A stretch of 64,000 nt of DNA from Parcubacteria group bacterium (GTDB lineage: Bacteria > Patescibacteriota > Minisyncoccia > Moranbacterales > GCA-2747515). The DNA lies in NCBI GenBank assembly GCA_041660065.1, contig JBAZXC010000001.1:8535-72534 (forward strand). Reading direction: 5' to 3'. Shown here in pieces: positions 3,416 to 63,731 of the stretch. The notes below the pieces were generated by a model. That model saw only the letters and a program-made list of their open reading frames with translations. It searched no databases and had not been told where the DNA came from. The position numbers were made by a program, and so were the translations under genes. The stretch's first letter is position 1. Each line of letters opens with the position of its first letter.

Positions 3416-3585
3416 GCAAGGCAAGAAGCCTCATATACATATACTATGTACATGAGGCTTTTGATTTGAAGAAGTATGTAAAATCTTTTGCTCATATACT
3501 CATGAAAAATGGGATTTTTGAATCGTGTTCAATTTTTGGAATTACTTGACATGCAAGTAAATTGCCACAAGACTGTGCTGAATTT

Positions 3586-3715
3586 TGTTGGCCCTATGTC
3601 TGCCTGCCGGTAGGCAGGGGACGACGTTCGAACTTTTAATGGAAAATACCCAATAATATGGGGTTTTTACAATATTGACAAATAATCAAATATATGATAT
3701 AATATTATTCATACT
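3586..3715 (+). repeat. copy 1 of a ~130-bp promoter cassette: GC-rich palindrome CTGCCTGCCGGTAGGCAGG plus consensus promoter TTGACA(3675-3680)-17-TATAAT(3698-3703)
   Basis: Near-identical to 4177-4300. The -35, 17-nt spacer and -10 elements are perfect consensus. Confidence 0.7.
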
Positions 3716-3756
3716 AATGAAGCACGTAAATGTTGTTTACAAACAAGGAGATTATC

Positions 3757-4119
3757 ATGAAAAAGGTAATGATTAGTTTTTTCGCAGGTTTTTTCGCAGG
3801 GATTATTATTCTTGTTGCTATCGCAAATATTTACACAGTGTCTAATGTTTCAGCAACCTCTCAAGTGGGTAAGTCTGCATTTGACATGGGAACCCCGTTG
3901 GCGAAGGAGAATGAGGATGGTGTTGTGATTGTGGCTCATTCAAATCCTGGGTATGGAGGAAAACAAGCTCAAGCTATCATCAATCGTCGGGAACTTCTTC
4001 ATAAAAATGTTGTAGAGATGATGGAGAAGGATGGTTGGAACTCAGTTATTGAAGAAGTAAATCCGTTTGACCATACCAATCCCCGAGTGGTTTTTGCCAC
4101 TGTAATAAAGATTGACTAG
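3757..4119 (+). CDS. small membrane-anchored hypothetical protein (N-terminal TM, ~95-aa soluble domain)
   Basis: ORF 3730..4119. ATG at 3757 has AGGAG upstream. N-terminal hydrophobic helix FFAGFFAGIIILVAIANI. Confidence 0.45.
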   Translation: MKKVMISFFAGFFAGIIILVAIANIYTVSNVSATSQVGKSAFDMGTPLAKENEDGVVIVAHSNPGYGGKQAQAIINRRELLHKNVVEMMEKDGWNSVIEEVNPFDHTNPRVVFATVIKID

Positions 4120-4176
4120 AAAAAAGAAGAGCAATCAACTCAAATGAGTTGGTTGCTTTTAAATTTGTCAAAAAAT

Positions 4177-4300
4177 TGTTGGCCCTATGCCTGCCTGCCG
4201 GTAGGCAGGGGAAGAAGTTCGAATACTTTTAATGAAAAATACCCAATAAATACGGGCATTTTAACTATTGACAAATAATCAAATATATGATACAATATTG
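4177..4300 (+). repeat. copy 2 of the promoter cassette: palindrome at 4189-4210 and TTGACA(4268-4273)-17-TACAAT(4291-4296)
   Basis: Aligns with 3586-3715 at high identity. Confidence 0.7.
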
Positions 4301-4377
4301 TCTAGTTATATGATTCAATGGGTGAATCATACTTCAACGCAACGCCACAATGTGGCACCGCAACGGAGGTTTTTACA

Positions 4378-4737
4378 ATGGAAAACATAGCGCAAATTGT
4401 TTCAGAGGGAAGTTATTATGAAGTTCATGTGCAATTATCTGATGAATTGATTGGTAATATTGATCAATTAAAGTCATTGCTAAATGAATTTTTAAGTGGA
4501 TCGTATATACATGCATGCATGTTCCGATACGGCACCATTATCAAATTTAAATCTTCTGGATTTGGTGGGTGGTCCGAACAAACTGCACAGGTAGTTCTGA
4601 AAAAAGCATCTGCTTGTTTGCCGGTATATGTGCATGATACAACACTTCAAAAAAGAAAGAGACAAGTACGCGATGCACTCAACAAATGTACTGATCTCGA
4701 CACCATTGAAAAAATTGGTAATATTTTGAAAGTTTGA
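4378..4737 (+). CDS. hypothetical protein
   Basis: ORF 4318..4737. ATG at 4378 is preceded by GGAGG. No recognisable domain. Confidence 0.45.
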   Translation: MENIAQIVSEGSYYEVHVQLSDELIGNIDQLKSLLNEFLSGSYIHACMFRYGTIIKFKSSGFGGWSEQTAQVVLKKASACLPVYVHDTTLQKRKRQVRDALNKCTDLDTIEKIGNILKV

Positions 4738-14309: not shown

Positions 14310-14696
14310 ATGTCTATGGGAACACAATGTTTCTTGGCAGAAAGAGGTCTTTCAGCACAGGAAAAAGATAAGAAGCAATTTTTTTGTACGCAGTGTCAAC
14401 AATTTCACTCAAAGTACAACGTGCGATATATATTCATCGAAGGAGGGAATGCGCACGCATCGTTTTTTGTTCCAGCAATGATCTATCCGATCTGTAGGCA
14501 GTGTTACAACAAGGTGAAAAAACAAAGTTCTTTGGCTATGACGTGTGTGTTTTTCGATAGGGAATTTCTGGCGTATCACATCACAATGCGTCGCGGAAGG
14601 TATCTTGTGGCAAAATTCGGCCATATGATCGAACTTACCGAAAAACAGGTTATGAAATACAAACAAGCCGCACAAAAGTTTATCACTGCGGCATGA
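14310..14696 (+). CDS. Cys-rich hypothetical protein (two CxxC pairs, putative zinc ribbon)
   Basis: ORF 14298 starts on GTG. ATG at 14310 has GGAGG ~7 nt upstream. Contains CTQCQQ...CRQCYNK. Confidence 0.4.
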   Translation: MSMGTQCFLAERGLSAQEKDKKQFFCTQCQQFHSKYNVRYIFIEGGNAHASFFVPAMIYPICRQCYNKVKKQSSLAMTCVFFDREFLAYHITMRRGRYLVAKFGHMIELTEKQVMKYKQAAQKFITAA

Positions 14697-25939: not shown

Positions 25940-26015
25940 GAAAAAAGATGTCTGTCTCCTTGTCCTTATATCGTTTGGCGTGATACCATGAGAGTGTTTA
26001 TACATAAAGAAAAAC

Positions 26016-26050
26016 TCGTTAATTCGGAAATGCTCTAATTCGTTAATTGT
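26016..26050 (+). promoter_or_regulatory. TTAACGA-type box array (CGTTAATTCGG...CTAATTCGTTAATTG) immediately upstream of the GT4 gene
   Basis: Member of a recurring intergenic motif family. Confidence 0.4.
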
Positions 26051-27285
26051 TTATTGTGAATCTCTATCTGATCAAATTAGGCAAGGCGTGGCAGGTGATC
26101 AAACGTGATGGCGTCTGCAGAGGTCTTCAGCGTGTTTTTGGAGCGCTTTTTTCGATGTTTCGCACCGTTGGTAGGGGGGATATCCTTTTTATTTCCGGTG
26201 GCATCGGGGACAGTGCACTCTACCGTACTGTGCATGTTGCCGAGGAATTGCGACTCAATGGATTCCGATGTTCAGTGACGATACAAGATAATCCGTTTCT
26301 CTCTTCGTATGTAGATAAATTTTCGGTTTTTGTCTTTCATCGTACGCTCTATACGGAGAAAGTAAAAAAAATGATCGATGCGATCAAAGCGCAGGATAAA
26401 GTGATCATTTTTGATACTGATGATCTCGTGTATGATCCCAAGTATTTATCTCTCATGGATTATTATCAAAAGATGAATTCTTTGGAAAAAAAGTTATATC
26501 AAAACGGTCTCGGAGGGGAGATTCTGCGAGATCAATATGTGAAAGTCGCCACGACGACTACGAGTTTTCTCGCGGAGAAGTTGCGTGCGGAAGGGAAGGA
26601 AGTTTTTATTGTGCCAAACAAACTTTCTGTCAAAGATGTGCGAGATGCAGAAAAAGTGTGTAAGATTCCGGATCACCTGCCCGCAGTGCATATGCATACA
26701 CACGCATTGCAGGCGGGAGTCCGGAATGACAAGGGTATTATTCGATTGGGATATTTTAGCGGTACGATCAGTCACAATAAGGACTTTGCGACGATCACAG
26801 ATGCATTGATGCGCATAATGGAAAAGTATCCGCATGTTGAATTGTTGCTGGTCGGTCCGCTTGATGTGGAAAGTATCCTTGTGCAAAAATTTAGAGAGAG
26901 GATCGTGCAATTGCCATATGCGTTGCGTGCCCAGCATTTTGCAAATGTTGCAAAATGTGACATCAATCTTGCGCCACTGGAGAAAGATAATCCATTCTGC
27001 GAAGCAAAGTCAGAGTTGAAGTTTTTTGAAGCGGGTATCGTTTTTGTGCCGACGGTTGCAGTGGCAAATCGGACATTTGCAGAGGCTGTGCAGGATGGTG
27101 TGGATGGGTTTGTCGCACATGGAACAGACGAGTGGGTGGAGAAATTATCACAACTTATTGAAAATAAAAAAATGCGCAAGAATATGGGTGAAAGAGCACA
27201 CCGCACAGCAGTGGAGCGCCACACAACGCAAAATGCAAAAAATTTACAGTACTATGAATATTTGAGAGAAAGGATAGGGAAATAA
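26047..27285 (+). CDS. glycosyltransferase, GT4 family (GT-B fold)
   Basis: C-terminal FEAGIVFVPTVAVANRTFAEAVQDGVDGFV. TTG start at 26047; possible alternative Met at 26155. Confidence 0.6.
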   Translation: MFIVNLYLIKLGKAWQVIKRDGVCRGLQRVFGALFSMFRTVGRGDILFISGGIGDSALYRTVHVAEELRLNGFRCSVTIQDNPFLSSYVDKFSVFVFHRTLYTEKVKKMIDAIKAQDKVIIFDTDDLVYDPKYLSLMDYYQKMNSLEKKLYQNGLGGEILRDQYVKVATTTTSFLAEKLRAEGKEVFIVPNKLSVKDVRDAEKVCKIPDHLPAVHMHTHALQAGVRNDKGIIRLGYFSGTISHNKDFATITDALMRIMEKYPHVELLLVGPLDVESILVQKFRERIVQLPYALRAQHFANVAKCDINLAPLEKDNPFCEAKSELKFFEAGIVFVPTVAVANRTFAEAVQDGVDGFVAHGTDEWVEKLSQLIENKKMRKNMGERAHRTAVERHTTQNAKNLQYYEYLRERIGK

Positions 27286-27491
27286 AATTCCCCTTCATTT
27301 CCCTTTACAAAAGGGAAAAATTTTCTCCCTTTTGTAAAGGGAGATGTCCGAAGGACAGAGGGATTTACAACTTTCTATTTTGCAAAGGGAATTGCCTGCC
27401 CGCAGTACTTTTGCACGTGCAATGCAGGCGGGGAGGGATTGGGAACTCTCCCTTTCGTAAAGGGAGTTGGAGGGATTTTTGTAAAAACCAT
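27286..27491. repeat. composite palindromic intergenic repeat block (CCCTTTACAAAAGGGA hairpins, a ~55-bp unit TCTCCCTTTTGTAAAGGGAGATGTCCGAAGGACAGAGGGATTTACAA, a CTGCCCGCAG...GCAGGCGGGG palindrome, and GGGATTGGGAACTCTCCCTTTCGTAAAGGGAGTTGGAGGGATTTTT)
   Basis: Units recur at 27855-28200, 29086-29172 and 31375-31490. Confidence 0.75.
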
Positions 27492-27854
27492 ATGCTCAAG
27501 CATTATAATGCATATCTAAAAAGGAATGCACGAACCCTTCGTAAGAATATGACGAAAGCTGAGGTGATTCTGTGGAGTATAATTCGCAGGAAACAAATCT
27601 GCAATGTGCAGTTTTATCGTCAAAAACCTTTGGGAAAATATATTGTGGATTTTTATTGTCCTTCGAGAAATTTGGTCATTGAGATTGATGGAGGACATCA
27701 TTATGAGGATGGAGAAATTATTGATGATGATCTACAAAGGGAAAAATTTTTAAGAACGGAATTACGTTTAAAAGTTTTACGATTTACAAATGATGATATT
27801 TGTAAAAATTTGACTTCTGTGGTCGATAAGATTATTGAGGAGTTGGGTCAGTAG
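27492..27854 (+). CDS. DUF559 endonuclease-domain protein (Vsr/Mrr-like fold)
   Basis: TKAEVILWSIIRRKQ...FYRQKPLGKYIVDFYCPSRNLVIEIDGGHH...LRLKVLRFTNDDI. The listed ORF's N-terminal 27 aa (MHVQCRRGGIGNSPF...) are read-through of the repeat; the ATG is at 27492. Confidence 0.7.
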   Translation: MLKHYNAYLKRNARTLRKNMTKAEVILWSIIRRKQICNVQFYRQKPLGKYIVDFYCPSRNLVIEIDGGHHYEDGEIIDDDLQREKFLRTELRLKVLRFTNDDICKNLTSVVDKIIEELGQ

Positions 27855-28200
27855 AAAATCCCCCTAACCCCCTTTGCAAAAGGGGGAAATATTAAATCTC
27901 CCTCAGTCCCTCTTTACAAAAGAGGGAAGTTCTCAAATCTCCCTCAGTCCCTGCCTACCGGCAGGCAGGCCTCTTTACAAAAGAGGGAAGAAATTCTCCC
28001 TTTTGTAAAGGGAGATGTCCGAAGGACAGAGGGATTTACAATTCTCTATTGTACAAAGGGATTAAGAACCCCCCCTTTTTTTTGCAAAAGTGGGTTGCCT
28101 GCCTGCCACCTGCCTGCCGGTAGGCAGGGTAGGCAGGGGGGGGGATTGGGAACTCTCCCTTTTGCAAAGGGAGTTGGAGGGATTTTTCTATTCATGCTAT
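27855..28200. repeat. second composite repeat block downstream of the DUF559 gene, including two copies of the CTGCCTGCCGGTAGGCAGG palindrome (27951-27969, 28093-28143)
   Basis: Shares units with 27286-27491 and with the promoter cassettes at 3586-3715 and 4177-4300. Confidence 0.75.
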
Positions 28201-28252
28201 AATAAAAATGCCTAAGACAAGGCTTTTTTGGTATGAACTTTAGGAAAAATAC

Positions 28253-29044
28253 ATGCATAAAGCACTAAAACAACACGAAAACTATAGGGAGTTGATCTGG
28301 ATGCTTGCCAAGACGGATTTCAAATTGCGTTATCAGGGATCAATGTTGGGGTATCTTTGGGCGTTATTAAAGCCGCTCCTCACTTTTGCAGTGTTGAATT
28401 TTGTTTTTTCTGCCGTGTTTAATCCGCGCAACGCAACGGGCGTGGATACATATTCTCTAGAATTACTTGTGGGACTTATGATGTTTTATTTTTTCTCTGA
28501 GGGAACAAGCGCAGGTCTTAGCTCGCTTGTGGCAAAATCACAATTGGTGACAAAAATTTATGTGCCACGATGGACGATCATTCTTGCGTCCACGATCAAT
28601 GCAACGATGATCTTTGCGATGAATTTATTGGTGATCGTCTTTTTCTTTACATTAAAGGGATTTATGCCGAGCATTGGTTCAATAGCATTATTTCTGGTCT
28701 TTGCAGTGTTTATCTATATCATTGTCTTATCATTTTCTCTGATTACGGCACCGCTCTACGTGAAATTTCGGGATCTCTCCATGATCTGGGAGGTGCTTCT
28801 CATGATCATCATGTATGCATCGCCGATCATTTATCCGCTTGTGACACTGCCGGCGCAATATCATCCATACATCCTCCTCAATCCACTGGCGTTTATCATT
28901 CATTTTACCAAAGAGTCGTTGATCCATGGACATTATGCCGATCCATATCAGTATATGATTTTTATTTTCATTGTTGCCGGAGGATTTGTGTTGAGTATTT
29001 TTTCATACAATAAATTTATTACAAATGTTGCGGAGGAGATGTAG
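28253..29044 (+). CDS. ABC-2 type polysaccharide exporter permease (Wzm/TagG-like)
   Basis: 263 aa, six TM helices, N-terminal WMLAKTDFKLRYQGSMLGYLWALLKP typical of Wzm. Confidence 0.8.
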   Translation: MHKALKQHENYRELIWMLAKTDFKLRYQGSMLGYLWALLKPLLTFAVLNFVFSAVFNPRNATGVDTYSLELLVGLMMFYFFSEGTSAGLSSLVAKSQLVTKIYVPRWTIILASTINATMIFAMNLLVIVFFFTLKGFMPSIGSIALFLVFAVFIYIIVLSFSLITAPLYVKFRDLSMIWEVLLMIIMYASPIIYPLVTLPAQYHPYILLNPLAFIIHFTKESLIHGHYADPYQYMIFIFIVAGGFVLSIFSYNKFITNVAEEM

Positions 29045-29049
29045 AGATC

Positions 29050-29172
29050 AATTAAAAAATTAACGGGTTAACGATTTTACGAATTGGGGGAATTAAGAAC
29101 TCCCCCTTTTGCAAAGGGGGTTGGGGGGATTGAGAACTCCCCCTTTTACAAAGGGGGTTGGGGGGATTTTTG
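29050..29172. repeat. TTAACG boxes (29050-29083) followed by two tandem G-rich variants of the GGGATTGAGAACTCCCCCTTTTACAAAGGGGGTTGGGGGGATT unit
   Basis: Units are related to 27434-27480, 28141-28190 and 31441-31487. Confidence 0.7.
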
Positions 29173-31263: not shown

Positions 31264-31374
31264 GAAATATTAGTGGATTATTAAGGAAAATCACATAAAA
31301 TGAAGGCACATCTGGGAAATTATGGGAAAATGGTATACAATTCACTAATGGATAAAATAGTGCTATCGCTGCGT

Positions 31375-31490
31375 ATCTCTCCCTTTTGCAAAGGGAGCTG
31401 CCTGCCCGCAGTGCTTTTGCACATGCCGTGCGGGCGGGGAGGGATTGGGAACTCTCCCTTTTACAAAGGGAGTTGGAGGGATTTTAAAAT
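31375..31490. repeat. intergenic repeat copy (CTGCCCGCAG..GCGGGCGGGG palindrome plus GGGATTGGGAACTCTCCCTTTTACAAAGGGAGTTGGAGGGATTTT) between the GT2 and the Wzt gene
   Basis: Same units as at 27392-27480. Listed ORF 31300..31506 is a translation of this repeat. Confidence 0.75.
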
Positions 31491-31519
31491 CATTTATACT
31501 CGTTAAGAAACTACAACAT

Positions 31520-42651: not shown

Positions 42652-42755
42652 CAAATTAACGAGTTAAATAGTTAACGGATTAACGAACTGATGACGGAAT
42701 TTTTACAATAATTCTTTAACGCGTGAACTCGCTAATTCGTTAATTGTGTTTAATA
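42652..42755. promoter_or_regulatory. TTAACGA-type box array between convergent and divergent minus-strand genes
   Basis: CGAGTTAAATAGTTAACGGATTAACGAACTG...TTAACGCGTGAACTCGCTAATTCGTTAATTG. Confidence 0.4.
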
Positions 42756-44675
42756 TAGTGGGTTTAATGAAATTCCCGTGTAATAATATTTCATGATCTT
42801 GTCGTATTTCCAGTCTTTGTCACGAGCGAGAACGAGCGATCCATTGGCGATGAGTCCAACCATGTGATTGCCTTCAGATTCGAGTGTTTTTGTGGATTTG
42901 TTGGGGTGTTTGCCATAAGGGTCATCCACGGATTTGCACCATGGGTAATCGGATGATCTCCAGCGTTCTTTGTAGCTACGTGTATGACCATCGCTCCATG
43001 AGCTATATGGTGTGAGAGCGATCTCATTTTTGTATTTTGCGATGACTCCACGTGTAGCTTCAGCTGCTTTTTTGATGTTGGGATATTTCTTTTCCCATTC
43101 ATATCCTCGATAGATCTGCGAGCCGGAATCGCTACGGATCTTGAATCCAAGTGGTGCATATTTGGTCGCGTATTCGATATACCATCGGCCATATGTGCGG
43201 AAGATCGTGGTCATGACTTTGGTGTGATCCATATCACCTGTGCCAGTCGTTTCACCCATGCCCCATGTGTATTGCTCAAGTGGGAGAGTATTGATCACCC
43301 AGATCTGCGTGACAGTGCTCGAGGTGCCGGCGATGATGTTTTTGCCTTTGTAATAGCGTACGGTGATCTTGCCACGATATTCATCATAGGATGAATCCGG
43401 TCGGTGTACATTGAAAATAAGAGAAGCGTTGTCGTTATCAGCTGCATCAAATGTAACTGCAGTCTTTATTTTTTTGGAGGAGATAGAGCCATATACTTTG
43501 AGATAACCATCGCTGTCATAGGTAACTTTGGTGTGTGTGTTGCCACCAATCTGCGCTAACACATTGCCATCCTTGTCTTTGATGTTATAGGGTTTATTCG
43601 TTTCAATCTCAAATGGATCGTTTTGAATTCCAGATTTGTCATAATACCAGAGACCGACAGCGATATTTGGTCCCATACCGGAAGAGAGGAGATTATTTTT
43701 TTCTATCTCGTTAATAGTATAAATTTGATCGGTTCCATTATAAAAGTAGTAGACTGGCAAAGTATTTTCCGCTTGAGAAGGATATGCATAAAATGCGATG
43801 CCTTCATACACGTTTGTATTTGATTTTGTTAGTTCATTCTTCTTCTCCTCGTCAGCTGTATAAAAATGATCTCTTGTCTTTTTGTCATAAAAGCGGTAAA
43901 TGGGAATCAGGTCGTCTGCTTGTGCAGGGTAGGTATAAAACGCGACTCCCTCGTATTTGTAAGTTGTTTTTGGCGTGGCGATGATGGTATTTTTTTCTTT
44001 TTCACTTGCAGTGTAGAGGTGGTCGCCGGTAATTCTGTCATAAAATCTATAGACAGGGCTGGAATTTTTTTTAGAGAGGTTGTTTAATTTTGCGGCCTCG
44101 AGCTCATCGGCCGTATAAAGGTGATCTCCGTTAGTCTTATTATAGAAACGATAAATATCCGATGTATCTGTTTTTTTTGTAGTGTATGCATAGAATGCGA
44201 TTTTTTCGTAAGAATAGACTGATGCGAGATTTTTTTGCACGTTGGCCTTTTCTTTTTCATTTGCTGTGTAAAAGTGATCGCCATTTATTTTGTTATAAAA
44301 TTGATAAACGGGTTGTGAATCGTTAAGTGTTTTTGTATACGCGTAAAATGCTATACCATCATAGGTATACGGGGAATTGGTTTGGTTTATCAAACTGTCT
44401 TTTTGTTTTTCATCGGCTGTATAAAAATGATCGCCGGTGGTTATGTTGTGAATACGATAAATAGGAACAGTATCCTCTTGTTGTGTTGTAAATGCATAAA
44501 ACCCTGTTCCTTCCGGTTGATAGTCCGTTGCGGTGTAGCGATCTTTATACGCGTAGAATGATGTTTTTTCAAGGTTATAACCGGCGTGAGCTGTGGTTAC
44601 ATTTCCCAAAAAACAGACAGTGATGCCCAAGAGAACAAGAAAAAACGATAATATGTGATGATATTTTATTTGCAT
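42750..44675 (-). CDS. secreted SpoIID/LytB-domain protein with ~8 N-terminal FYT-type tandem repeats (DUF5648-like)
   Basis: Repeats of PVY(R/Q)FYN..(T/N)GDHFYT..E.EK. C-terminal LEQYTWGMGE, IYRGYEWEKKYPNIKKAAEATRGVI, SSWSDGHTRS, GNHMVGLIANGSLVLARDKDWKYDKIMKYYYTG (SpoIID family). Confidence 0.65.
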   Translation of the reverse strand: MQIKYHHILSFFLVLLGITVCFLGNVTTAHAGYNLEKTSFYAYKDRYTATDYQPEGTGFYAFTTQQEDTVPIYRIHNITTGDHFYTADEKQKDSLINQTNSPYTYDGIAFYAYTKTLNDSQPVYQFYNKINGDHFYTANEKEKANVQKNLASVYSYEKIAFYAYTTKKTDTSDIYRFYNKTNGDHLYTADELEAAKLNNLSKKNSSPVYRFYDRITGDHLYTASEKEKNTIIATPKTTYKYEGVAFYTYPAQADDLIPIYRFYDKKTRDHFYTADEEKKNELTKSNTNVYEGIAFYAYPSQAENTLPVYYFYNGTDQIYTINEIEKNNLLSSGMGPNIAVGLWYYDKSGIQNDPFEIETNKPYNIKDKDGNVLAQIGGNTHTKVTYDSDGYLKVYGSISSKKIKTAVTFDAADNDNASLIFNVHRPDSSYDEYRGKITVRYYKGKNIIAGTSSTVTQIWVINTLPLEQYTWGMGETTGTGDMDHTKVMTTIFRTYGRWYIEYATKYAPLGFKIRSDSGSQIYRGYEWEKKYPNIKKAAEATRGVIAKYKNEIALTPYSSWSDGHTRSYKERWRSSDYPWCKSVDDPYGKHPNKSTKTLESEGNHMVGLIANGSLVLARDKDWKYDKIMKYYYTGISLNPLY

Positions 44676-44740
44676 ATATATTTTTATTTACGTGCCACCA
44701 TTATATCACGGGATATATGGGAAATCAATGAAAAATATTC

Positions 44741-44830
44741 ACGAGTTAAAGGGTTAACGAATTTTAGAGAATTAAAGTGTTCACGGAGTGCAGTTCGTTA
44801 ACTCGTTAATTCCTTAACTCTTTAATTGTT
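44741..44830. promoter_or_regulatory. TTAACGA-type box array with inverted copies (ACGAGTTAA ... TTAACTCGT)
   Basis: Lies between the galE stop and the SpoIID-gene start on the minus strand. Confidence 0.4.
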
Positions 44831-45832: not shown

Positions 45833-45886
45833 CAATTAAAGAATTAACGAGTTAATGAGTTAACGGATTAACGAATTATTTTTTGA
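45833..45886. promoter_or_regulatory. TTAACGA-type box array (AATTAAAGAATTAACGAGTTAATGAGTTAACGGATTAACGAATT) upstream of galE
   Basis: About 10-11-bp periodicity of the box. Confidence 0.4.
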
Positions 45887-46265: not shown

Positions 46266-46275
46266 ACAAAATTTT

Positions 46276-46312
46276 TAACTCATTAATTCTTTAACTCGTT
46301 AATTTTTGTGAT
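46276..46312. promoter_or_regulatory. TTAACGA-type boxes upstream of the four-helix-bundle gene
   Basis: AACTCATTAATTCTTTAACTCGTTAATT. Confidence 0.35.
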
Positions 46313-49493: not shown

Positions 49494-49532
49494 AGTTAAA
49501 GAGTTAACGAATTAGTGAATTAACGAATTTCA
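49494..49532. promoter_or_regulatory. TTAACGA-type box array upstream of the GtrB-like gene
   Basis: GTTAAAGAGTTAACGAATTAGTGAATTAACGAATTT. Confidence 0.4.
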
Positions 49533-62104: not shown

Positions 62105-63682
62105 ATGCAAAAGATCATCGAAGAATTGACCGCACATCGTCGATTTTATATAGGGTTGTTTGGTGTGATCATGCTCGCGACGTTTCTGCGTTTATGGGGA
62201 TTGGGTAATGTGCCATTTGTCGCTGATGAGTTTTTGGACGTGAATGCGACATATGGATATTTCAAGACGGGAGAGTGGCAGGCGTGGGATTTCAATCATG
62301 GTGAACCAAGTTTGCGTCTCAATGAGGCAAGTGATGGGCGTGCGTGGATCTATCGATGGCAAGTGGCGCAACTATATCATTATTTGCCACCGACTGAATT
62401 TACCATTCGTTTGGTCAGTGCGCTATGGGGAATTCTTACGACGATTATTTTATATTTTGTCACACTCAGTTATACCAAAAATCGGTGGATTGCATTTATA
62501 GCAGCATTTCTCTGGGCGGTAAGTGTGCCGGCGATCGAAATCAATCGTAAGATCAGGATGTACAGCATGTTCGCACCAGTCTTTTTGCTTTTTATGTGGA
62601 GTCTTTTCCAATTCATTGAATCCACGATCGTGTCCACGGTTCAATCTGGGGCTAGTCGTGGATTTATGCAGTCATTTTTTGCTGTGCGGTGGCCTTATAT
62701 TGTGCCGGTGATCTTGTTTGGTGCATTGGCGATGCATTTGCATGCATTGACTGGAAACTTCGTTTTGGTAGTTGTTGTATATTTTGTTGTGATGATCTAT
62801 TGCGGAGGTGAGGGTGTCATGCGACAACGATATATGGCATATGCTGGCGTCATTGGTGTGGGGCTTTTGTTGATAAAATTCGTGCGTCCGGCGGATTGGG
62901 TATATTTTATACAAAGTTTGTCCATTACGGAACATGTGAGTTATATGGGACATATTTTGCGCAACTATTGGCATCCCCTTCTTGGTGGAGCGGTAATGAT
63001 TTTGGGTACATGGGTTTTAGTACGGGATAAAGAACATATGCGCGCGGGCGTGTGGATTGGATGCTCTTTTTTTGTCAGTCTCTTTATGGCGATGTTTTTT
63101 TGGTCACGCAATGTGGGGGCGCAATATATCTTTTTTGCACAACCGTTTGGACTCATCCTTGCATCTGCCGGTATCGTATATCTCGCGGAATATGCACAAA
63201 AGATCACGCAAAAAAGAAAAGTATTTTTCTTTGTGCTTTTTGCGTGTTGCGTGTTTCTGCCGAATTATGGGTATTTTTTGGAGGAAAACAATACATATCA
63301 TATTACCGCGCAGGCGGATACGGTGGATTATCGCAAGGTGTTTGATTATGTAAAACGCAACTACACAAGTGGGGAGGTGCTTATTACGCGTAATTTTCGT
63401 AATTATTATTGGAGTGGACTTGATGCGCAGGTGTTTGATTTTGGCTCGGAGCGTGCGGAAGAACAATTGGTACAAGAGGGCAAGGTCAAAAAGATCACGT
63501 TTGCATACGTGCAAGAGATCGTGCAAAGTCATCCTGCAGGATGGGTGGTCATTGCTGACAACGATGAGACATTTATAGAAAAAGAAGCGCAAGAGTATTT
63601 TGATGCAAGCTTTGAGCGTGTAAAGGGCTCATCACTGCTCAATGGTGATGTGCGTGTGTATCGATGGGGTTCTAGGGATTAA
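62105..63682 (+). CDS. GT-C fold membrane glycosyltransferase (GT39/PMT_2-like)
   Basis: LRLWGLGNVPFVADEFLDV (acidic DE loop), RKIRMYSMFAP, 11+ TM, C-terminal soluble domain. Confidence 0.55.
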   Translation: MQKIIEELTAHRRFYIGLFGVIMLATFLRLWGLGNVPFVADEFLDVNATYGYFKTGEWQAWDFNHGEPSLRLNEASDGRAWIYRWQVAQLYHYLPPTEFTIRLVSALWGILTTIILYFVTLSYTKNRWIAFIAAFLWAVSVPAIEINRKIRMYSMFAPVFLLFMWSLFQFIESTIVSTVQSGASRGFMQSFFAVRWPYIVPVILFGALAMHLHALTGNFVLVVVVYFVVMIYCGGEGVMRQRYMAYAGVIGVGLLLIKFVRPADWVYFIQSLSITEHVSYMGHILRNYWHPLLGGAVMILGTWVLVRDKEHMRAGVWIGCSFFVSLFMAMFFWSRNVGAQYIFFAQPFGLILASAGIVYLAEYAQKITQKRKVFFFVLFACCVFLPNYGYFLEENNTYHITAQADTVDYRKVFDYVKRNYTSGEVLITRNFRNYYWSGLDAQVFDFGSERAEEQLVQEGKVKKITFAYVQEIVQSHPAGWVVIADNDETFIEKEAQEYFDASFERVKGSSLLNGDVRVYRWGSRD

Positions 63683-63731
63683 CGAATTAAAGAATTAAAG
63701 GGTTAATGAATTAAGAATTAAAAAATTAAGA
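63677..63731. promoter_or_regulatory. TTAACGA/TTAAG box array (GATTAACGAATTAAAGAATTAAAGGGTTAATGAATTAAGAATTAAAAAATTAAGA) upstream of the next GT-C gene
   Basis: Same family as the other box arrays. Confidence 0.4.

Follow-up and report, generated by a model that had tools for sequence, protein, structure and literature searches.

A small DUF559 gene in the 64-kb stretch of DNA analysed here (the window), which comes from the genome of an uncultured member of the Parcubacteria, is bracketed by repeat modules in a fixed order and orientation: module, 12 nt, DUF559 ORF, 0 nt, inverted module. The modules have a three-arm architecture, the same oriented arrangement accompanies a clade of DUF559 genes across phyla, and gene and modules are mobile as a discrete unit. 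From this pattern we infer an interaction between protein and modules, in which DUF559 would bind or cut them and the breaks would drive module spread. The reading we prefer, to which we would give an even chance, is that BoxC/PIT-type modules form a nest at this locus around a selfish mini-element, whose Vsr-fold nuclease would act on the modules.

The BoxC/PIT/TMECO repeats, on record since 1992, number thousands in sequenced bacteria and form triplexes in vitro, and DUF559 is a large orphan nuclease family that is routinely mis-annotated as Vsr. We know of no function, origin or mobilising activity assigned to the repeats, nor of any function for two short proteins of the DUF559 family, YcjD of E. 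coli and NGO0050 of N. gonorrhoeae. The consistent oriented bracketing across phyla ties repeats and nuclease family, two orphans, together, and the DUF559 family may target or spread repeats of the BoxC or "triplex motif" type.

The DUF559 gene and its repeat modules

The gene occupies positions 27492-27854 on the plus strand, with glycosyltransferase and ABC transporter genes as neighbours, and its 120-amino acid product matched DUF559 (PF04480) with an E-value of 2.6e-32 (111.4 bits; cut-off 20.6). Pfam matches were confined to DUF559, MTES_1575 and PvuRts1I-like, and the Vsr model was not among the hits at E ≤ 0.001. In a Foldseek search, an AlphaFold model of the protein (pLDDT 88.6) ranked nearest to NGO0050 (3HRL; E 1.7e-14 by sequence and 2e-7 by fold) and then to the catalytic domain of I-Bth0305I (3R3P; E 7e-4, TM 0.60/0.72, sequence identity 16-18%), followed by AbaSI/PvuRts1I and Vsr; 4PAR, 1VSR and 1CW0 were also among the matches. 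In an alignment of 52 homologues, D53, E64 and D66 were invariant and H70 was at least 90% conserved, and by homology these four are assigned as putative catalytic residues. On the Pfam match, the model and the conserved residues, the protein is a predicted Vsr-fold PD-(D/E)XK nuclease. The gene is also distinguished by its GC content, 33.6% compared with 40-43% in neighbouring genes and 41% in the whole window.

The start codon is the ATG at 27492. Since residues 10-17 were conserved in the 52 homologues, the possible N-terminal extension to TTG-27411 is translated repeat. The ORF at 31300-31506 likewise translates a repeat composite; the sequence-only reading had been right about both. Exact-protein look-ups with the 120-aa and 147-aa forms and with the 101-aa JGI call (P0001) returned no match. 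Relatives are publicly annotated as 'very-short-patch-repair endonuclease', and Vsr does belong to the same fold superfamily (1VSR, 1CW0). A cytosine methyltransferase (Dcm-type) partner was absent from all 80 loci, however, and a classical Vsr repair role was rejected on this ground; since a Vsr Pfam match is lacking too, the annotation is probably a misnomer. PADLOC returned weak domain-level matches alone (mREase_II, DpdF), so that membership of a defence system is not indicated.

As the sequence-only reading had described, composite repeats lie on both sides of the gene, which is set within about 900 bp of modules, and the same units recur between genes of the polysaccharide operon (29086-29172 and 31375-31490), where we found copies at 29.1 and 31.4 kb; the window had no modules besides those at 27.3-31.5 kb. 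Each module runs in the order C-rich arm, 3-nt loop, G-rich arm, 3-nt loop, mirror G-rich arm. An extra small hairpin is present in the second loop of some window modules. Allowing up to three mismatches, the hairpin CTCCCTTTTGYAAAGGGAG was found at ten sites (27299, 27325, 27448, 27868, 27996, 28155, 29102, 29139, 31379 and 31454), with stems of 8-9 bp and 3-nt loops, against a chance expectation of 0.01. Modelled by single-stranded-DNA folding (ViennaRNA), the hairpins gave -7 to -8 kcal/mol each. Stem differences between copies were compensatory (CTCCCTTT/AAAGGGAG, CCCCCTTT/AAAGGGGG, TCCCTCTTT/AAAGAGGGA). The GC palindrome CCTGCCTGCCGGTAGGCAGG was exact at 4190 and 28109 and inverted at 27950, and had one mismatch at 3599, with a chance expectation of 0.00. 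Two of these copies (3599-3618 and 4190-4209, no strand assigned) lie in a duplicated promoter cassette, confirming the earlier placement at 3598-3619 and 4189-4210. With such expectations for hairpin and palindrome, a chance origin was rejected.

The outermost upstream module, M0 (27285-27318, minus strand), begins on the final base of the stop codon (27283-27285) that closes the glycosyltransferase gene and comprises the C-box AAATTCCCCTTCA and the hairpin TTTCCCTTT-aca-AAAGGGAAA. It is followed by a module with an inserted small hairpin (27324-27366, plus; TCTCCCTTT-tgt-AAAGGGAGA, TGTCC-gaa-GGACA, third arm GAGGGATTT) and by a degenerate module (27375-27440, plus) made up of a decayed hairpin, the long GC hairpin GCCTGCCCGCA...TGCAGGCGG and the third arm GGAGGGATT, which is 88% identical to 31377-31446. 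The proximal upstream module, CTCCCTTT-cgt-AAAGGGAG-TTG-GAGGGATTTT (27448-27479, plus), stops with its third arm 12 nt 5' of the ATG; read from the window sequence, all eight triplets of AAAGGGAG-TTG-GAGGGATT are allowed in the purine motif (G.G:C, A.A:T, T.A:T). Directly after the stop codon begins the proximal downstream module (27855-27886, minus), which is inverted (AAAATCCCCC-TAA-CCCCCTTT-gca-AAAGGGGG) and matches the reverse complement of 27448-27479 at 26 of 32 positions, the single stem difference being compensatory. Two more inverted modules follow on the minus strand, one at 27894-27927 (AAATCTCCCTCAG and TCCCTCTTT-aca-AAAGAGGGA) and one at 27935-27986, in which the GC palindrome (27950-27969) is placed between C-box and hairpin.

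The block 27973-28190 is a direct duplicate of 27303-27484 (160 of 222 aligned columns identical) and holds an identical copy of the module with the inserted hairpin (27995-28037, plus). Beyond this copy lie a degenerate composite (28044-28147, plus), whose GC palindrome is at 28109-28128, and the module CTCCCTTT-tgc-AAAGGGAG-TTG-GAGGGATTTT (28155-28186, plus), 66 nt 5' of the ATG of the ABC-2 permease gene (28253). Between the permease and GT4 genes lies a tandem pair of solo modules, 29102-29131 with 29139-29170 (plus; CCCCCTTT/AAAGGGGG/GGGGGGATT), and between the GT2 and ABC ATPase genes a solo composite of a long-GC-hairpin module (31379-31446) and a short module (31454-31485), also plus. 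Across these copies a 48-nt unit occurs five times (27432, 28139, 29086, 29123 and 31438; identity 83-100%), and a 109-nt composite at 27371-27479 is 88% identical to 31377-31485. A second assembly of the same strain (L210), the sole return of a permease look-up, was 100% identical from 28109 on, and an assembly artefact was thereby rejected. Its contig breaks at the 28109 palindrome.

Association across phyla and mobility

We examined 74 relatives from many phyla, fetched by protein similarity alone, for perfect pyrimidine/purine stems of at least 7 bp. Such hairpins flanked the DUF559 gene on at least one side at 69 of the 74 loci (upstream at 57, downstream at 58, on both sides at 46). They numbered 5.3 per kb up to 150 nt from the gene compared with 0.14 per kb beyond 500 nt, a 37-fold enrichment, and 1.6% of random 150-nt intervals contained one. 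The purine-motif third arm was gene-proximal in 61 of 144 flanking hairpins and distal in 14, with a background of 0.5%; roughly half of the loci had no third arm that could be recognised up to 6 nt from the hairpin. Typically, the third arm stopped 2-14 nt 5' of the ATG and the C-box began no more than about 13 nt after the stop codon, and 37 of the 77 hairpins on the downstream side belonged to an inverted module 3' of the stop codon. Additionally, the inner upstream and downstream boxes were complementary over at least 8 nt at 31 of 75 loci, compared with 10% of permuted pairs, and full inverted flanks of 45-55 nt were present in L002, L003, L069, L041 and L075.

No partner gene recurred beside DUF559, the commonest neighbour family being present at 4 of 80 loci, and paralogues within one MAG carried different module types (L002 and L004). 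With flanking hairpins at 69 of 74 loci from many phyla, the link between gene and repeats is general rather than local. DUF559 copies lacking the repeats, which the sequence-only reading had named as evidence against its proposal, were found only among distant genes: the viral contigs contained distant relatives alone, and nine of these (31-52% identity) had no such hairpins. The association therefore belongs to one DUF559 clade, not to the whole domain.

Modules and gene together form discrete units of 500-770 bp that are common to unrelated contexts, even in different phyla. Loci from Phascolarctobacterium (L032) and Gastranaerophilaceae (L046) were 89.8% identical over 577 nt and had no other similarity, and the common unit was bounded exactly by the outer hairpins, which form a perfect 22-bp TIR, TTTTCCCTCTTCTTGAAGAGGG. 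Two copies in one MAG (L022 and L027) showed 87% identity over 605 nt, and L013 and L015 showed 89% over 579 nt. No short target-site duplication was seen at the ends of L032 and L046. Instead, many copies are flanked by long direct duplications of 40-211 nt, a pattern that suits recombination better than classical transposition. The copies are intergenic. Comparison of L210 and L211 did not give a matched pair of filled and empty sites; L211 is a close relative (PBP1A 89% identical) but yields no empty site because its polysaccharide locus is different.

Modules also occur largely by themselves. A sample of 767 kb, fetched by module alone, contained only three DUF559 genes, all within 140 nt of a module, and about 98% of its modules were solo (129/132). 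The same sample contained 12 inward-facing pairs of modules, spaced 15-193 nt apart and with no gene between them, which look like non-autonomous derivatives and could be candidate targets of putative homing.

Comparison with known repeats and mobile elements

Judged by layout and arm sequence, the window modules belong to the same class as the BoxC, PIT (potential intrastrand triplex) and TMECO motifs of E. coli and other bacteria but are not strict TMECO. The shared layout is a C-rich arm, a loop (3-6 nt in BoxC/PIT/TMECO), a G-rich arm, a 3-nt loop (often TTA/TTG) and a mirror G-rich arm; like the window modules, BoxC/PIT/TMECO are intergenic, multi-copy, single or in inverted pairs, variable among close relatives and located at rearrangement-prone loci. 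BoxC/PIT motifs are said to have been described also by Bergler in 1992 and by Hoyne and Maher in 2000. The window arms CTCCCTTT/AAAGGGAG/GAGGGATTT stand against TMECO arms CCCTCNCCC/GGGNGAGGG, and the TMECO consensus CCCTCNCCC-N3-6-GGGNGAGGG-N3-GGGNGAGGG was not matched in the window, where the arms are CTCCCTTT or CCCCCTTT. The extra hairpin in the second loop is likewise unlike BoxC/PIT/TMECO. An earlier assignment to a MITE/REP-like family held in that these are REP-like interspersed repeats, but not as a generic MITE or REP, given the three-arm BoxC/PIT/TMECO layout (PMC4666352). Whereas the window motifs bracket a nuclease gene, BoxC/PIT/TMECO have no reported enzyme in the literature searched, in which we also found no paper linking them to the DUF559 family. 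Indeed, transposase or integrase remnants were never found at TMECO (Holder et al., 2015; PMC4666352).

In its organisation the locus resembles REP/RAYT systems (REPtrons). In both, the genome's own short palindromic repeat stands in inverted copies on either side of a gene. Most of the repeats are solo and they greatly outnumber the gene, which is usually single-copy, and different gene-repeat pairs may coexist within one genome. The components are different, however. RAYT is an HUH/Y1 transposase related to IS200/IS605, whereas the window gene encodes a predicted PD-(D/E)XK nuclease in which neither Pfam nor the fold gave an HUH/Y1 (IS200/IS605-type) signature, and REP is a hairpin with a conserved 5' tetranucleotide, whereas the window repeat is a three-arm triplex-type module.

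A Vsr-like nuclease core within a selfish element is exemplified by I-Bth0305I (EDxHD family), the second-best structural match. That enzyme is multidomain, encoded in a phage intron and directed at a conserved host gene, whereas the window protein has 120 residues and is free-standing, intergenic and repeat-flanked. YcjD and NGO0050 match it in family and size, and the repeat context of either was not pointed out in the literature searched. With MITEs and TIR-bearing insertion sequences the DUF559 units share terminal inverted repeats, as in L032 and L046, and gene-less pairs; they differ in having no known-family transposase, in TIRs that are themselves hairpins and in the long direct duplications that often flank them.

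Proposed mechanism and alternatives

In the mechanism we envisage, the DUF559 protein would recognise a module in duplex form, as a palindrome, or extruded as a hairpin or triplex, and would nick or cut it. Host recombination or repair would then copy modules into other module-bearing sites, with occasional co-copying of a gene lying between two inward-facing modules, and copies with the gene would end up rare beside numerous modules that are solo or lack a gene. Such a logic would be REP/RAYT-like or homing-like, built on an enzyme and a DNA structure of another kind. To our knowledge, a 120-aa nuclease alone cannot perform strand transfer. More tentatively, short stand-alone DUF559/YcjD nucleases may be the missing partner enzymes of BoxC/PIT/TMECO, in a selfish REP/RAYT-like system extending from Patescibacteria to E. 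coli in which recognition of non-B DNA (hairpin plus third strand) would drive both proliferation and instability. If true, this would represent a second enzyme-and-repeat solution alongside REP/RAYT, and a nuclease that reads non-B DNA structure.

The sequence-only reading had offered the gene either as cargo or as the mobilising nuclease, and the ordered, oriented bracketing favours the latter. Were the gene passive cargo, another agent (host recombination or replication, or a trans-acting enzyme) would spread the modules, the gene would ride between two of them much as in a composite transposon, and the nuclease would serve some other purpose. Several observations fit this: solo modules vastly outnumber gene-bearing ones, modules persist in ycjD-negative E. 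coli, the long direct duplications resemble recombination products, and Holder et al. tie TMECO sites to rearrangement while invoking no dedicated enzyme (PMC4666352). We nevertheless consider it unlikely, since other gene families would then be expected between modules, and at 80 loci the bracketed gene was always DUF559, with no recurrent neighbour. The orientation of the third arm towards the gene (61 against 14), its position within a few bases of the start or stop codon, and the different module types of paralogues in one MAG also speak against passive carriage.

It is improbable, in our view, that the repeats are expression or insulation signals, with hairpins and inner boxes acting on RNA or transcription to terminate or attenuate, to stabilise mRNA, or to keep a toxic nuclease in check by anti-Shine-Dalgarno sequestration, and with solo copies as operon attenuators. 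In Firmicutes-type copies (L041, L069 and L076) the inner G-box is Shine-Dalgarno-like, at a distance of 5-8 nt from the ATG, but in the window it ends 12 nt, and its GGAGG core lies 18 nt, 5' of the ATG, too far for such a role, which in any case cannot explain inverted modules 3' of the stop codon. Within the window, the five solo modules all share the operon's orientation and lie 34-86 nt 5' of gene starts, yet 132 solo modules elsewhere showed no co-orientation with their neighbours (the third-arm side faced a gene start in 30 cases and a gene end in 46). Terminator-like matches exceeded expectation (13 versus 3.8) but were mostly on the minus strand, and PMC4666352 summarises that PIT elements acted neither as promoters nor as terminators in E. 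coli; the earlier suggestion of attenuators is weakened accordingly by this and by the unbiased solo modules. Rfam at permissive thresholds returned microRNA-like hairpin matches alone, all spurious and under the gathering score, and no family match. Imperfect stems had four T:G and three C:A pairs, no wobble bias, although in too few stems to weigh RNA-level selection. The least probable explanation, to our mind, is a host-beneficial caretaker, a structure-specific nuclease that resolves replication-stalling triplex/hairpin repeats and is co-located with them by co-selection. In vitro, DNA polymerase is indeed blocked by triplex motifs, which also mark unstable loci (PMC4666352), the putative catalytic residues are strongly conserved, and the lineages in which ycjD is fixed carry the most BoxC copies. 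However, a caretaker would have no need of oriented modules within a few bases of its gene, and nothing would account for its passage between phyla in a unit of 577 bp bounded by hairpins, for diverged paralogues that differ in module type within a single genome, or for the atypically low GC of the gene.

Our preferred reading, a nuclease that acts on the modules around it, concerns two orphans that are both directly testable in E. coli, with ycjD, the 23 TMECO copies of MG1655 and natural ycjD-negative lineages. The E. coli DUF559 gene, ycjD, adjoins the first-described BoxC, next to fabI; its GTG start falls within a 16-bp hairpin, in the 3' arm, as might also suit an expression signal, and BoxC-type sequences follow downstream. 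In an even sample of 60 E. coli genomes, ycjD-positive genomes had 11-24 matching places and ycjD-negative genomes 1-15, a pattern that agrees with Table S7 of PMC4666352 and also with PMC12817139. The gene is confined to, and fixed in, phylogroups A, B1 and C, which are also the richest in BoxC copies, and the correlation with copy number is therefore confounded by phylogeny. Since 1-15 copies persist in the ycjD-negative lineages, the modules need no resident gene for their upkeep.

A DUF559 gene among three-arm repeats

The ORF at 27492-27854 (+) encodes a 120-aa DUF559 protein (PF04480, E 2.6e-32). It is flanked upstream by a GT1 glycosyltransferase gene (26047-27285) and downstream by an ABC-2 permease gene (28253-29044), both on its own strand, in a same-strand polysaccharide cluster that also holds GT4, GT2, ABC ATPase and APS kinase/CysQ genes; its GC content is 33.6%, against 40-43% in its neighbours. 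The nearest named relatives of the source MAG ('Parcubacteria group bacterium'; 469-kb contig) are Candidatus Moraniibacteriota. Since residues 10-17 of the protein are conserved in 52 homologues, ATG 27492 is the true start, bearing out the sequence-only reading that the ORF-finder's extension from TTG 27411 is translated repeat; the same held for ORF 31300-31506.

The repeats of the window are real and non-random. The hairpin CTCCCTTTTGYAAAGGGAG occurs at ten sites (three mismatches at most), all in 27.3-31.5 kb, against 0.01 expected by chance. A 48-nt unit is present in five copies, a 109-nt composite repeat has a second copy at 88% identity, and a 20-nt GC palindrome lies at 3599, 4190, 27950 (inverted) and 28109 (chance expectation 0.00). 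Compensatory changes separate the stem variants CTCCCTTT/AAAGGGAG, CCCCCTTT/AAAGGGGG and TCCCTCTTT/AAAGAGGGA. From 28109 on, a second assembly, made independently for the same strain, is identical; it breaks at the GC palindrome.

Each module runs from a pyrimidine arm through a 3-nt loop to the complementary purine arm, and through a further 3-nt loop (TTG/TTA) to a mirror purine-rich arm. In the example CTCCCTTT-tgc-AAAGGGAG-TTG-GAGGGATTT, 8 of 8 positions read as allowed purine-motif triplets; the second loop of some modules holds an extra hairpin (TGTCC-gaa-GGACA, a long GC hairpin or the GC palindrome). The layout is that of the BoxC/PIT/TMECO motifs (C arm, N3-6, G arm, N3, G arm), which form triplexes in vitro and mark unstable loci (PMC4666352). 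Three plus-strand modules precede the DUF559 gene, the last (27448-27479, +) ending 12 nt before the ATG, and three minus-strand modules follow it, the first (27855-27886, -) starting at the base directly after the stop codon. When inverted, 27855-27886 matches the upstream module at 26 of 32 positions, the single stem difference being compensatory. Further on, 27973-28190 duplicates 27303-27484 in direct orientation, and solo modules lie at 29102-29170 (+) and 31379-31485 (+).

Modules with and without the gene

Using peptide patterns from the DUF559 ORF only, we fetched 80 loci, one genome per species, with proteins 40-66% identical, from Moraniibacteriota, Saccharibacteria, Clostridia, Negativicutes, Bacteroidota, Desulfobacterota, Elusimicrobia, Alphaproteobacteria, Chlorobi and others. 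Within 150 nt of the genes, perfect pyrimidine/purine hairpins with stems of 7 bp or more were 37 times as dense as in background (5.3 against 0.14 per kb). Of 74 loci, 57 had them upstream, 58 downstream, 46 on both sides and 5 on neither; 1.6% of random 150-nt windows held one. A triplex-type third arm was gene-proximal in 61 of 144 flank hairpins and distal in 14 (background 0.5%); its end usually falls 2-14 nt short of the ATG, and the complementary C-box begins no more than about 13 nt past the stop. The flanks read as 45-55-nt inverted termini: hairpin A, optional hairpin B, inner box, gene, inner-box complement, optional hairpin B, hairpin A. Complementarity between the inner boxes was three-fold above that of permuted pairs. 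Across the 80 loci, the neighbouring genes include no recurring family and no methyltransferase. Hairpins were absent beside nine of nine distant viral DUF559 genes, so the association is a property of this DUF559 clade and not of the whole domain. Three loci have a second DUF559 gene no more than 2.5 kb from the first (L069, about 1.6 kb downstream; L030; L068), and in loci L057 and L019 the 5' module has a direct copy immediately after the gene; both findings suggest tandem arrays.

The reverse search, with a 28-nt module pattern, returned at least 120 metagenome stretches and 7 viral stretches. Among the matches listed, a DUF559 gene adjoins 3 of 132 modules, and these are the sole DUF559 genes in 767 kb of module-fetched DNA; the solo modules there are mostly intergenic and comprise three-arm units, four-arm palindromes, outward-facing pairs and 12 gene-less inward-facing pairs. 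This shows that gene-bearing units sit within a far larger population of solo modules. On four unrelated metagenome contigs (L088, L104, L121, L172) a widespread small palindromic repeat, gtcattgcgaggagcg...cgacgaagcaatctc, directly adjoins triplex-type modules. A close relative of the source organism (L211; PBP1A 89% identical, polysaccharide locus different) holds in 22 kb a single TMECO-like module, TCCTCTCCC-tat-GGGAGAGGA...GGTGAGGG at 14367-14387; near relatives therefore differ in module content.

TMECO numbers 23 in MG1655 and 3610 over 262 proteobacterial genomes, and Holder et al. report having found neither transposase nor integrase remnants nearby (PMC4666352). BoxC was first described beside fabI, in an intergenic region that also houses ycjD, the E. 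coli DUF559 gene. In E. coli K-12 (sapF-ycjD-fabI, L208 5040-5840) the GTG start of ycjD lies in the 3' arm of a 16-bp hairpin, CACCTCATTCTGACAA/TTGTCAGAATGAGGTG, and downstream are the relic of another DUF559 3' end and a TMECO/BoxC. The gene is present in 3377 of 5426 complete E. coli genomes; the remainder have eefRABCD at the same site, and there (L209 1090-1170) a similar hairpin is retained directly after sapF. The G-rich arm of the sapF-side hairpin, GGATGAGGTG, matches the inner box of Firmicutes-type DUF559 elements (L057, L069). Published TMECO counts are about 13-30 in some E. coli strains and 1-2 in others (PMC4666352). Our even sample of 60 E. coli genomes, with 11-24 query-matching places if ycjD-positive and 1-15 if ycjD-negative, agrees with them. 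The strains with about 13-30 TMECO presumably belong to phylogroups A, B1 and C, and those with 1-2 to B2; the correlation between ycjD and TMECO copy number is confounded by phylogeny.

Mobility of the bracketed gene

Copies in Phascolarctobacterium (L032) and Gastranaerophilaceae (L046) are 89.8% identical over 577 nt, bounded by outer hairpins that form a perfect 22-bp TIR, with nothing further in common in 6 kb. Two copies in differing contexts of one Bacteroidota MAG (L022, L027) share 605 nt, and the pairs L013/L015 and L010/L013 share 579-650 nt. In the syntenic loci L050 and L067, neighbour genes are 82-89% identical and the DUF559 gene just 72%. Many copies are flanked by long direct duplications of 40-211 nt (perfect in L034), which in L036, L022 and L027 take in the 3' terminus of the host gene upstream; short target-site duplications were not seen at the L032/L046 ends. 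These results show a discrete unit that moves horizontally, consisting of the DUF559 gene with oriented BoxC/PIT-like modules set close on either side. In L036, L022 and L027, the host-gene end recurring downstream of the element is 40-60 nt long, stop codon included; most differences between the two copies in L036 are synonymous, as though one had been brought in with the element.

By analogy, the pattern is that of REP/RAYT, a mobile gene bracketed by repeats amid many solo repeats, but enzyme and DNA structure both differ. In the literature searched, no publication connects DUF559 with these repeats, and no Rfam family matches. The AlphaFold model of the window protein is of high confidence (pLDDT 88.6) and best matches, in order, 3HRL (NGO0050), the catalytic domain of the homing endonuclease I-Bth0305I, AbaSI/PvuRts1I and Vsr. 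We see about an even chance that the nuclease would recognise and cut the modules, and that recombinational repair after cutting would spread both modules and gene.

It is unlikely that the gene is passive cargo. We consider it improbable that the modules are expression or attenuation signals; among the matches listed, the solo modules show no orientation bias relative to neighbouring genes. Slightly less probable again is a host caretaker role for the DUF559 nuclease.

Other repeats in the window

A second, unrelated family consists of intergenic arrays of three to five phased 8-nt units, TTAACGNN, at 26010-26050, 29052-29079, 42656-42743, 44738-44825, 45836-45879, 46275-46302, 49496-49523 and 63679-63714 (28 pattern matches in the window, 0.16 expected by chance). 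The arrays are often inverted pairs about 30 nt apart, and one lies directly before the two solo modules at 29.1 kb. Within the minus-strand ORF 42750-44675, a 65-nt unit recurs at 43993-44465 as three diverged copies, 68-78% identical, probably reflecting a repeat within the protein. A duplicated cassette of about 120 nt (3585-3706 and 4176-4299), comprising the GC palindrome, a spacer of about 55 nt and a consensus TTGACA-17-TATAAT promoter, precedes two small genes (3730-4119 and 4318-4737). Two of the modules beside DUF559 carry this same 20-mer palindrome as an insert, and a near-identical palindrome adjoins the DUF559 gene of L010, a locus from a different phylum.
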